From assembly GCA_036785375.1 (NCBI GenBank), contig JAWMAR010000175.1:1488001-1552000 (forward strand): a DNA stretch of 64,000 bases, given 5' to 3'. A program made the position numbers and the translations under genes. Within the stretch, counting starts at the first letter, position 1. Each line of letters starts with the position of its first letter. Source of the stretch: Leucoraja ocellata (lineage: Eukaryota). Below are positions 10,001-16,388 of the stretch, piece after piece. A model generated the notes under the pieces. The model ran no database searches. It was given only the letters and a program-made list of their open reading frames with translations, and was not told the DNA's origin.

Positions 10001-13000
10001 ACAGAGAGTTGTGAGTCTGTGGAATTCTCTGCCTCAGAGGGCAGTGGAGGCCAGTTCTCTGGATACTTTCAAGAGAGAGCTAGATAAGGCTCTTAAAGAT
10101 GCAGAGTCAGGGGTTATGGGGAGAAGGCAGGAATGGGGTACTGATTGGGGATGATCAGCCATGATCACATTGAATGGCAGTGTTGGCTCGAAGGGCCGAA
10201 TGGCCTACTCCTGCACCTATTGTCTATTGTATCTAGTGTACAGAGAATAGCTTCGTAAATTGAAGATGTTGCAAAGGACCCATGGCATATCAAAAATTCA
10301 AGCTGAATGTTTGTTAATAGACAAATATCTGCATATTATTTATCATAAATCAAAATCTCTCAACTTTAAACACAGTTTAAGTCTTGTAAGAGTGCTGTTA
10401 TGATCTGTAGAACCAAAGAGGATAAAGGTCTAAAATTTCCTGATTTAAAATTGTCTGACAATAATGTTAGTGTTCAAGAGTTCAAGAGAGTTCTAGAGAG
10501 TTTATTGTCATGTGTCCCTGATAGGACAATGAAATTCTTGCTTTGCACAATATTCTTGCTAGGCACAAATACAAGTGTCTGTAATAAGGTAAAATATCTT
10601 GAGCATTTTGTTACATAACAAATGACAGATGATGAGGATATTTATAGGCAACGACGTATGCTGTATGTACAGGCGAATATTCTCTTGCGCAGGTTTGGTG
10701 CGTGTACAGATGTGGTGAAGATGTCACTGTTGTTTGTTTTGTTGTTTGTCTTTTGCACAAAAGTCCGCGAGCATTGCCACTTTCATTTCACTGCACATCT
10801 CGTATGTGTATGTGACAAATAAACTTGACTTGACTTGACTTGTTTAGTGCATATTGCACACCACTCTGTACTGCGCACTTGTGGTCTAGCTACAGAAAGA
10901 CACGTTTGCAGAGACTAAAGGTGGCCTATAATGACGCAATGAGAACACTAGGGAAACCTAGATGGTGTAGGGCTAGTAACACGTTTGTGGCTGCAGGAGT
11001 CAGTACTTTAGAAGCAATTAAGTAATCATATGAATAAATTCATTTGCAGGATAAATGACTCTAAAAATGTAATTATTGAGGCCTTGTCAAACATAAGGTT
11101 TAGTACTACATGCTACCAATCCCAGTTATGGAGACACTTGTATCGTTGTCTCGATGTAGGACATTGACAATTCTTTTTTATTCTGTATTTTAATTCATCT
11201 ATTGTGGGTTTTTTTAAATATATAATTTATGATGCTTTTATAAGTGATGTACTAAGATTTTATATGTATTTTATGTTTTTAATATGCAATATATTTGTAT
11301 GTAATGTTGTGCCTTGTCTGGATCTTGGGTACGAAATAAAGTCCATTAATCAATCAATTAATTAATTAAACAGTTGATTTTGTTTTACCTGATAGATTGG
11401 TGCTATCATCAATTTCATACAGTTTGTCAGATTGTGTCCGGTTGACAGCCGTTTCACACAGTGTATCTGACTGTTCCAGGCTTACATCTGCTTCATGCTG
11501 TTCACTAGACTGAAACATTAATGACAAGAATTAATCTTCATTGGCTTTTCACTGGTTCAGTCTACCAACTTTAAACATTTTAAATTCCACTGTTTCTGCA
11601 AACACACAGTTAAAATGCTCTTAAAAATGCAATTGGATTTAGACAAGTTATTGCATCGAAAGTTACGGCTCATTATCTTATGTGTACCTTTTCCTTGGAG
11701 TTATTATGGCTTTGTTTTCTCAGGAGGTAAATGTCACGAGTACACCATCTCGTCCGACCTAAAAGAGTCAAGAGTGCTTTATTGCTATATGGCCCATATA
11801 GAACAATGAAATTCTTATTTGCAGCAGCACAGCAGAATATGTAAACATAGTACACTGTAAACAAAAAACAAAAAAACAAGTTTAGTGCGTGCATATACGC
11901 ACACATACACACAGGTAGACACAAAATGCTGGAGTAACTCAGCAGGGAAGGCAGCATCTCTGGAGAAGGAATGGGTGATGTTTCGGGTGGGGACCCTTCT
12001 TCAGACCTAAAACGTCACCCATTCCTTCTTTCCAGAGATACTGCCTGTCCCGCTGAGTTACTCCAGCATTTTGTGTCTACCTTTGGTTTAAACCAGCATC
12101 TGCAGTTTTTTCCTACACACACAAATACACATATATTGATCATATGTATATATACACACACACAAGCACACATACACACAAAAAACTAATAGACTATTAT
12201 TGTTATTATTGCACTATGTAGTTCAGAGCTTATTTGAGGCTGTAGTGTCTAATAACCGAATGGCTGTAGGGAATAAGCTGTTCCTGAACGTTAGTTTTCA
12301 GGCTCCTGTACCTTCTTCCCGAAGGTATGGGTGAAATGAGTGTGTGGCCAGGGTGGTGTGGGTCTGATGATGCTGGCAGACTTTGAGGCAGCAACTCCGG
12401 TAAATTCCTTTGATGGTGGGGAGGTCCGAGCTGGTGATGGACTGGGCAGTGGTCACAATTTTTGCAATCTTCTTCGTTCCAGGGCAGTCAAGTTGCCGAA
12501 CCAGGTTGTGATGCAACCAGTCAATATGTTCTATTGTGCATCTGTAGAAGTTCAAGAGAATCCTCTCTGACATACCAAATATGCATAATCTTCACAGAAG
12601 TAGAGGCATGATGTCACTTTTTGTTCATGAAAATACAAGCAAAACTGTTGGCAACATGAACTTTGTTATGTTGCCAATTTACAGGGTAAACTCAACACAT
12701 TGTGCCTTAGTATACATGGTTTTCACCATATGGCTGGCATTATTAAGTCTCCCTAGATGGAATCTAACAATAATTTTACAGAAACTGTAGGTGCAAAATG
12801 TATTCCAAGATACCCACGTTTATCAAAGTTGAACAACATATTCTCAATGTAGTTATATTTGTTGCAATTAAACATACAATTTTAATTTCAGATTTTCAAA
12901 TGTTCATGCAATCCTTATGCAAAAGTAAAAGGTCACATGTGTAGGAAGGAACTGCAGATGCTGATTTTACACATTCCATTCTTCAGACCACATACTCTTC

Positions 13001-16000: not shown

Positions 16001-16388
16001 TTAAAATCTCACTCCACCTCCCCCTTTCCTAACCCCTTCCTTCCATTCCTGCTTTGCCACCAATGCACGCAGGTTAATCCACATTATTCTGCACCCGCCA
16101 CATATTTTCTCACTCATTCCACTGTCGCCCTGATGCTTCACCTTACACCCTTCACAAGCCACAATTCCATCTGTGGAAGGTCAGCCAGCAACCCCGAGAT
16201 ATTAGTGACTGAGAGGAGGGAACGTAATGCAATGCAGAGTGTGGCATGGACCACGCTGTCTCCCACAACAGATGCAGTCCCGCAAACCCCAGGCCTATCT
16301 GTCCCACCTTCAGGATGATGCGCTCCAAGGCCGCCCGGTAGCGGCTGCCGTTGCCCATTAGCCCGGTCTCCAGGCTTCCTCCCTCCAT
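2661..16388 (-). CDS. HJURP: HJURP/Scm3-like CENP-A chaperone, spliced gene. Exons 16308-16388, 15089-15155, 11688-11758, 11389-11509, 8291-8340, 6417-6507 (tentative), 2661-4069; terminal exon(s) uncertain
   Basis: Spliced N-terminus [54 protein letters not shown] fits the Scm3 CENP-A-binding motif (human RFQRRMQRLIEK|YNQPFEDTPVVQM..G|LRIW). All junctions are GT-AG and phase-compatible (0,1,0,1,0,1). The large Ser/Pro-rich exon contains [17 protein letters not shown], similar to the HJURP middle domain TISDLYAGMLHSMSRLL. Confidence 0.8.
4785..4810. repeat. (CA)n microsatellite
   Basis: Seen directly. Confidence 0.95.
6417..6507 (-). CDS. HJURP: Probable HJURP-like exon 6 ([30 protein letters not shown])
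   Basis: The only candidate I found that supplies the required phase 0 to 1 bridge; acceptor AAG, donor GTATGG. Confidence 0.45.
8291..8340 (-). CDS. HJURP: HJURP-like exon 5 ([16 protein letters not shown])
   Basis: Acceptor TAG, donor GTACAG, 50 nt, phase 1 to 0. Confidence 0.6.
9171..10232 (+). mobile_element. CR1 LINE, 5'-truncated and degenerate
   Basis: RT motifs [11 protein letters not shown] and [19 protein letters not shown]1 3' UTR with CTATTGT tail. Confidence 0.95.
10375..11365 (+). mobile_element. RTE-X-like LINE 3' fragment interrupted by two short insertions (~10472-10570, ~10728-10840)
   Basis: Broken frame [51 protein letters not shown] plus (CAAT/TAAT)n tail. Confidence 0.6.
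11389..11509 (-). CDS. HJURP: HJURP-like exon 4 (acidic/Ser-rich)
   Basis: Acceptor TTTCAG, donor GTAAAA, 121 nt open, phase 0 to 1. Confidence 0.65.
11688..11758 (-). CDS. HJURP: HJURP-like exon 3 ([24 protein letters not shown])
   Basis: Acceptor CTTTTAG, donor GTACAC, phase 1 to 0; Trp placed like human GLRIW. Confidence 0.65.
12195..12620 (-). mobile_element. Rex1/Babar-like LINE 3' fragment
   Basis: [22 protein letters not shown] is typical of the Rex1 C-terminus. Confidence 0.7.
13740..14428 (-). mobile_element. CR1 3' fragment nested in the Penelope element
   Basis: (CATAGAAA)n tail and [14 protein letters not shown]. Confidence 0.9.
14031..14235. mobile_element. PIF/Harbinger-type palindromic MITE
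   Basis: Inverted arms of ~80 bp (CCCTGTCCCACTT..AAGTGGGACAGGG); TAA duplicated at 14028-14030 and 14236-14238; removing it restores the CR1 sequence. Confidence 0.85.
15089..15155 (-). CDS. HJURP: HJURP-like exon 2 ([22 protein letters not shown])
   Basis: 67 nt, acceptor TTTAG, donor GTAAGA; Scm3-type KY..FED..I.L motif. Confidence 0.85.

Follow-up and report, generated by a model that had tools for sequence, protein, structure and literature searches.

HJURP escorts dimers of CENP-A and histone H4 and recognises the CENP-A targeting domain through its Scm3 domain (PMC13322267, sections 4 and 6), and the helices of its C-terminal repeats bind the Mis18 complex (PMC6731319). In PMC13322267 (Sci Adv, 2026) the protein is reported across deuterostomes, with the catshark Scyliorhinus torazame (GCB61218.1) included in Figure 1 (section 14), and zebrafish HJURP is described as preferring CENP-A/H4 over H3/H4, residing at interphase centromeres and being required for centromeric CENP-A (section 7). 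HJURP outside tetrapods, sharks included, was already published in 2026, and the skate gene described here is an added member of the family. It lies in a stretch of 64,000 nucleotides (nt) of Leucoraja ocellata (assembly GCA_036785375.1, contig JAWMAR010000175.1, positions 1,488,001 to 1,552,000), hereafter the window. We are confident that this locus is the HJURP orthologue, a spliced gene of 11 coding exons whose product is likely a chaperone delivering CENP-A/H4 to centromeres. The main text and three supplementary files of PMC13322267 contain no skate or ray, the supplementary PDF, which lay outside the search, may include one, and literature searches yielded no paper on skate HJURP. The assignment corrects the annotation of skate, ray and shark HJURP genes, all of which are labelled uncharacterized and of which those of skates are missed by Pfam, and it provides the little skate, a laboratory model, with a named CENP-A loader.

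Exon structure, splicing and promoter

The gene is encoded on the minus strand, with nine coding exons inside the window and two past its left end, in the next 6 kb of the contig. Exon mapping was guided by database homologues. All ten introns are bounded by GT and AG, and the spliced model is open over 737 codons. The exons are as follows, with window coordinates except for exons 10 and 11, which are given on the contig (G000, this genome assembly; C175, the contig holding the window).

16308..16388, minus strand: coding exon 1, 81 coding nt, donor GT; residues 1-27 with the ATG and the Scm3 helix as far as the KY Lys
15089..15155, minus strand: exon 2, 67 nt, AG/GT ends; residues 28-50 with the Tyr of KY, FEDD, the first predicted β-strands and the equivalent of the TLTY box
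11688..11758, minus strand: exon 3, 71 nt, AG/GT ends; residues 50-73 with the conserved Gly and Trp that end the Scm3 domain
11389..11509, minus strand: exon 4, 121 nt; residues 74-114, predicted to be disordered
8291..8340, minus strand: exon 5, 50 nt, placed by homology and GT-AG ends
7825..7929, minus strand: exon 6, 105 nt; opens a block that is conserved in sharks and rays
6417..6507, minus strand: exon 7, 91 nt
2661..4069, minus strand: exon 8, 1409 nt; residues 196-665, with a motif (residues 273-316) preceding the HJURP middle domain, a repeat-like helix (about residues 553-562) and a basic block resembling a nuclear localisation signal (residues 601-625)
351..408, minus strand: exon 9, 58 nt
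G000:C175:1485727-1485655, minus strand: exon 10, outside the window
G000:C175:1482471-1482384, minus strand: exon 11, outside the window, carrying the stop codon

The preliminary description of this stretch had proposed that three small exons in the interval 11688..16388 splice in phase into an Scm3-like peptide. Their coordinates (16388-16308, 15155-15089 and 11758-11688) and the peptide were confirmed, the exons joining in phase with AG/GT ends on the minus strand; the exons of that interval are correct, but they are only exons 1-3 of 11. Human HJURP presumably has an intron at the same K|Y position followed by a 67-nt exon 2; no paper giving its exon sizes was found. A further in-frame ATG is located within exon 1 at 16358, exon 6 is skipped in one annotated Amblyraja isoform, and an alternative donor of exon 8, 9 nt further on, is in use in relatives.

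Splicing of exons 1-4 is directly observed in RNA of related organisms. Raw RNA sequencing reads of run X24, of which about 5% was counted, cross the two junctions named in the preliminary description (15155|16308 with 11 and 11758|15089 with 14 reads) as well as the following one (11509|11688 with 24 reads). Runs X17 and X7 each provide one contig with all three joints, and in contigs of X1 and X5 exon 1 is separated from exon 4 by exactly 138 nt (67+71); the reads of X8 did not reach these exons. A few exon bases in these runs do not agree with the window; the RNA thus stems from relatives or other individuals and not from the sample of the window itself. Furthermore, both strands of the window together offer 40,782 open donor/acceptor joins that stay in phase, and of these 16308 to 15155 obtains the highest score (39.8 bits) with a profile built from non-chondrichthyan Scm3 domains, and the next 11 joins listed all share the acceptor 15155 and reach at most 27 bits. 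A chance assembly of unrelated exon-like fragments, or a pseudogene, was considered as an alternative. No point in favour of it was found; it is refuted by the junction reads, and the intact frame of 737 codons, the full-length proteins, annotated or assembled, in three other skates and the rank of the proposed join leave it a negligible probability.

The 5' end of the transcript lies in a region with promoter features:

16001..16750: CpG-island promoter region, GC content 0.55-0.66 and observed/expected CpG ratio 0.65-0.84 in 500-nt windows starting at 16000-16500
16497..16548, minus strand: promoter motifs at the 5' end of the transcript, namely a CRE-like octamer (16548-16541), a CCAAT box (16527-16523) and a CHR-type hexamer (16502-16497)

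The ATG of exon 1 is located inside the CpG island, and spliced RNA contigs extend 5' to at least 16487-16500. A GC pentamer is found three bases upstream of the CHR-type hexamer; the hexamer arises in 1.9% of 5000 shuffles of the 80-nt stretch, which was chosen post hoc. According to PMC4176359 this hexamer variant is functional as a CHR, and the human HJURP gene belongs to the listed CHR genes; by analogy, late-cell-cycle (DREAM/MuvB) expression of skate HJURP is plausible.

Relationship of the encoded protein to HJURP

With exon 8 as query, 17 proteins are found at E≤0.001. The 15 named ones are all from cartilaginous fish and labelled 'uncharacterized' or 'hypothetical', as had been surmised for the product of automated annotation, and the published catshark protein GCB61218.1 (P0017) is a direct match (E 5e-39). 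The window model shares 97.7% identity with the protein of the little skate Leucoraja erinacea (XP_055500322.1), 95.1% with that of Amblyraja and 84.7% with that of Rhinoraja.

A profile of 15 chondrichthyan proteins (A1) matches one of 177,635 PDB sequences at E≤10, which is human HJURP (3R45 chain C, E 2.1e-8). Against 1.84 billion representative sequences it yields 72 matches at E≤0.001, 69 of them outside A1; Pfam Scm3 is found at E≤0.01 in 29 of these and the HJURP_mid cut-off is passed by 9. Twenty of the 69 clusters were looked up, of which 11 are named HJURP (Xenopus, Discoglossus, axolotl, lamprey, alligator, two lizards, bird, rat, monkey and bat), 9 are uncharacterized and none has another function. 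The coelacanth protein of PMC13322267 (P0061) and the lamprey cluster of that paper are likewise among the A1 matches. Conversely, when a profile is built from 14 non-chondrichthyan HJURPs, the window model reaches 61.1 bits over residues 6-332 and the best of its 200 shuffles 3.8 bits; a profile-profile comparison with 9 mammalian HJURPs gives a probability of 96.9 over 54 columns. Beyond the Scm3 domain, residues 273-316 form a second shared block that lines up with the motif preceding the middle domain in frog, alligator, lamprey and mammalian HJURP. This second stretch occurs in many of the matches, and both blocks have the order and spacing seen in named HJURPs. The protein is orthologous to HJURP; the reciprocal profiles and the motif at 273-316 bear out the earlier proposal of a true, diverged orthologue in a cartilaginous fish.

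Several observations weigh against this assignment. The skate protein (P0001) reaches 12.6 bits (E 0.11) on Pfam Scm3, below the cut-off of 24.3, which is passed by 2 of the 15 chondrichthyan proteins; mammalian HJURPs score 22.7-34.0 bits on the same family (PF10384). None of the 15 matches HJURP_mid or HJURP_C of Pfam at E≤1, and a single-sequence phmmer search of the skate protein against the PDB gave no match. A mammal-only HJURP profile scores the window model with just 12.8 bits (shuffles 3.0). The members of the non-chondrichthyan profile were first found via A1, and the reverse search is therefore not wholly independent. The TLTY box is not literal, reading D-M-T-T with Thr in place of Tyr, and skates have altered 6 of 18 otherwise invariant Scm3 positions, including the Pro before FEDD. 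At the level of predicted structure the fold match is weak: Foldseek places 3R45_C first with E 0.38, and the VIA fold match has a Z of 3.6 and a root mean square deviation of 4.5 over 56 residues. The neighbouring gene is of the MORC family, and shared synteny with human 2q37.1 is not established. One full HJURP copy was found in the genome, a point in favour of the assignment; the search for further copies used a stricter first pass, hence weak extra copies may be missed.

The profile check suggested in the preliminary description has two outcomes, in that multi-sequence profiles match HJURP but the single protein stays below the Scm3 cut-off and HJURP_mid and HJURP_C are unmatched. It is because the single-protein Pfam and phmmer scores fall short that annotation left these HJURPs unnamed, and the Pfam Scm3 miss in turn is due to the faster divergence of the CENP-A-binding domain of skates compared with the rest of the protein. 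A search of the six-frame genome translation with Pfam Scm3 gave no match, as expected for an intron-split domain. The two top clusters in the ESM Atlas are HJURP (scores 0.76 and 0.75), which is no more than a lead.

The absent HJURP_mid and HJURP_C matches, the sub-threshold Scm3 score and the undemonstrated synteny would also be compatible with a chondrichthyan-specific disordered protein, unrelated to HJURP, in which a helix-acidic motif arose by convergence. Against this stand the two separate conserved blocks with the order and spacing of named HJURPs; a homologue is already part of the published HJURP set, and none of the 20 looked-up clusters has another function. The A1 and reciprocal profile results already largely refute convergence, and we consider it highly improbable.

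The Scm3 domain and its divergence in skates

In all four skates, K27-Y28 and the following spaced-hydrophobic and acidic-aliphatic pattern (as defined in PMC13322267, section 6) are kept, and the FED-type acidic run, the aliphatic spacing, the Gly and the Trp are retained. The segment around the acidic run had been thought to be closer to fungal Scm3 than to human HJURP. This did not hold, since both profiles match human HJURP and neither finds a fungal PDB chain at E≤10. Of 61 non-chondrichthyan domains, 46 have the second Asp; the next residue is Ile, Leu or Val in 44 and Pro in 11. Pro after the second Asp is the state in the mammalian rows. The acidic-aliphatic segment, as judged from these alignments, is the ordinary consensus of non-mammalian vertebrates, and the mammals are therefore the derived ones. 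The invertebrate HJURP alignment shown in PMC13322267 has the acidic-aliphatic pattern as well. As to the TLTY box, other elasmobranchs also deviate from it and its conservation is described as low in section 6 of PMC13322267; consequently, it is not a family-wide criterion.

An AlphaFold2 model was obtained for the little-skate protein, which is identical to the window model over residues 6-58. It predicts a helix at residues 5-29 and strands at 37-39, 44-47 and 50-53 (pLDDT 66-88), as well as helices at 281-344 and 549-558; for 575 of 733 residues the pLDDT is below 50. The predicted helix and three strands match the secondary structure described for human HJURP, a helix and a three-stranded sheet (PMC10070699). 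The helix 549-558 of P0018 aligns with amphibian proteins, and with the mammalian repeat helix in the progressive alignment only.

Based on human and zebrafish HJURP, the 737-residue product would carry CENP-A/H4 dimers to centromeres. Residues 5-53 are predicted to begin as one long helix and continue into three short strands, most of the remainder being disordered. The helix would pack on the α2 helix of CENP-A, its KY pair resting on a glutamate of CENP-A, and the strands would cap loop 1, thereby favouring CENP-A over H3. The single repeat-like helix near residue 555 may dock on the Mis18 complex, and the conserved motif 273-316 would be located where the DNA-binding middle domain begins. 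The CHR-type promoter would limit expression to late stages of the cell cycle, deposition following in early G1.

In skates the Scm3 domain has changed more rapidly than the remaining protein. Between the window and Rhinoraja, 13 of 45 domain positions differ compared with 96 of 681 elsewhere (p 0.015). The domain is the more diverged part in 5/6 skate-skate and 12/12 skate-ray pairs, in contrast to 5/21 shark-shark and 0/21 ray-shark pairs, the pairs not being independent. On a fixed 14-species tree (the partial Callorhinchus sequence excluded, columns with more than one gap dropped), parsimony counts 31 skate-added to 76 non-skate steps in the domain, versus 250 to 1045 elsewhere (Fisher p 0.023), and this ratio exceeds that of all 570 overlapping windows of the protein, 13 of them independent. 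The test is post hoc, modest and confined to proteins, with 45 columns and four skates. Positions invariant in the ten other elasmobranchs are changed in at least one skate at 6/18 sites of the domain and at 23/143 elsewhere, and on a vertebrate Scm3 profile the four skates are the lowest of 15 chondrichthyans (48.7-50.9 versus 55.7-77.3 bits).

These rates and profile scores would also be expected if the gene, although HJURP by descent, encoded a relaxed or shifted Scm3 domain with weaker or less selective CENP-A binding, compensated by other regions or by another factor. We regard this as improbable. The KY pair, acidic run, spacing, Gly and Trp are intact, the changes are mostly conservative or known elsewhere (Pro to Ala in 6/61, Phe to Tyr in 4/61), working orthologues show a wide plasticity of the domain (PMC13322267, section 6), and the limits of the rate test apply here too. 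The CENP-A-binding domain is normally the most constrained part of HJURP; in skates it could have turned into one of the fastest-evolving parts by tracking an unusually diverged CENP-A, a vertebrate instance of chaperone and histone co-evolving where they bind. Such HJURP-CENP-A co-evolution in skates is a guess, and a rather doubtful one. For primates, PMC13322267 reports that no positive selection was found. The skate-specific speed-up of the domain is the sole part of this work that possibly adds to questions of centromere evolution.

A CENP-A gene was searched for in the same assembly. With Pfam Histone, 150 of 345 candidates obtained a score, every one a canonical-type row, and H3 queries found H3, H3.3-type exons and decayed copies and no CENP-A. 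Three CENP-A motif patterns had 0 matches in the assembly, in which the H3 version of the pattern has 64. SLC35F6 is a neighbour of CENP-A in the human genome, and no H3-like exon occurs in 300 kb around an SLC35F6-like exon (C190:4016782-4017030). Skate CENP-A may be very diverged, have its introns at other places, or not be included in the assembly, and the failed search is no proof of its absence.

Genomic surroundings and comparison with described HJURPs

Upstream of HJURP and on the same strand, a gene for a MORC-family ATPase (with GHKL, S5 and zf-CW exons) extends over window positions 35553-64000 and on to about 68870. Its exons are 82-100% identical to the Rhinoraja 'ATPase MORC2-like' protein P0037, whose model runs into a tandem repeat also found in the window at about 33400-34650; the mapped exons exclude the C-terminal half. 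In the exon at 40264-40409 (minus strand) an A run changes the frame relative to P0037, due to either a sequencing slip or a broken gene. The contigs of the Rhinoraja MORC homologue and of Rhinoraja HJURP are equal in length. None of 106 selected open reading frames from 200 kb, examined for flanking genes besides MORC, matches Pfam. Long reading-frame fragments at 9059-10154, 22965-24050, 44034-46079, 57328-59238 and 47630-49262 resemble reverse transcriptases of CR1-type long interspersed elements and one long-terminal-repeat element.

An inverted copy, about 97% identical, of the window from position 944 leftwards (exons 9-11 and the 3' flank) is found at G000:C175:1818754-1850000, 330 kb away, where it begins at a gap of 200 N. 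A second HJURP paralogue was rejected, as the extra copy comprises exons 9-11 only and starts at this gap; it is likely an uncollapsed haplotype. Several histone loci also form inverted pairs on one contig (C250, C313, C367, C435), which suggests the same assembly pattern.

Two blocks, encoded by exons 6 and 7 (7825-7929 and 6417-6507; residues 131-182) and by the last two exons (residues 680-716), are strongly conserved in sharks and rays and have no known HJURP counterpart; they could be lineage-specific binding sites. In the database models P0003, P0008, P0012, P0013 and P0026 the N terminus is garbled or starts downstream of the KY motif, so that they lack the Scm3 domain. These models may be annotation artefacts or variants of exons 1 and 2.

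Among described HJURPs, zebrafish drHJURP (si:dkeyp-117h8.4) resembles the skate protein, by its published description, in being a fish orthologue that used to be uncharacterized and whose Scm3 domain has diverged (PMC13322267), and fungal Scm3 belongs to the same family, PF10384, with common ancestry (PMC13322267, section 4). The catshark GCB61218.1, a partial model of 469 residues, is a direct homologue with the same N-terminal domain and downstream blocks; the window model is 49% identical to it over 451 aligned residues and 51% to the full-length catshark protein over 699. Relative to the catshark, the Pro preceding FEDD is lost from the skate domain, and Tyr and Ile replace Phe at two sites. 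Skate HJURP differs from the human one (3R45 chain C; PF10384, PF12346, PF12347) in that it has no Pfam HJURP_mid or HJURP_C match, one repeat-like helix instead of two Mis18-binding repeats, no literal TLTY box and a MORC-family neighbour; its coding exons number 11, and the human gene has nine exons (PMC10070699). Both share the N-terminal Scm3 domain and the motif preceding the middle domain, a similar length (748 residues in human, PMC10070699, and 737 in skate) with mostly disordered chains and a CHR-type promoter site (for human, PMC4176359), and the skate gene has one very large internal exon.

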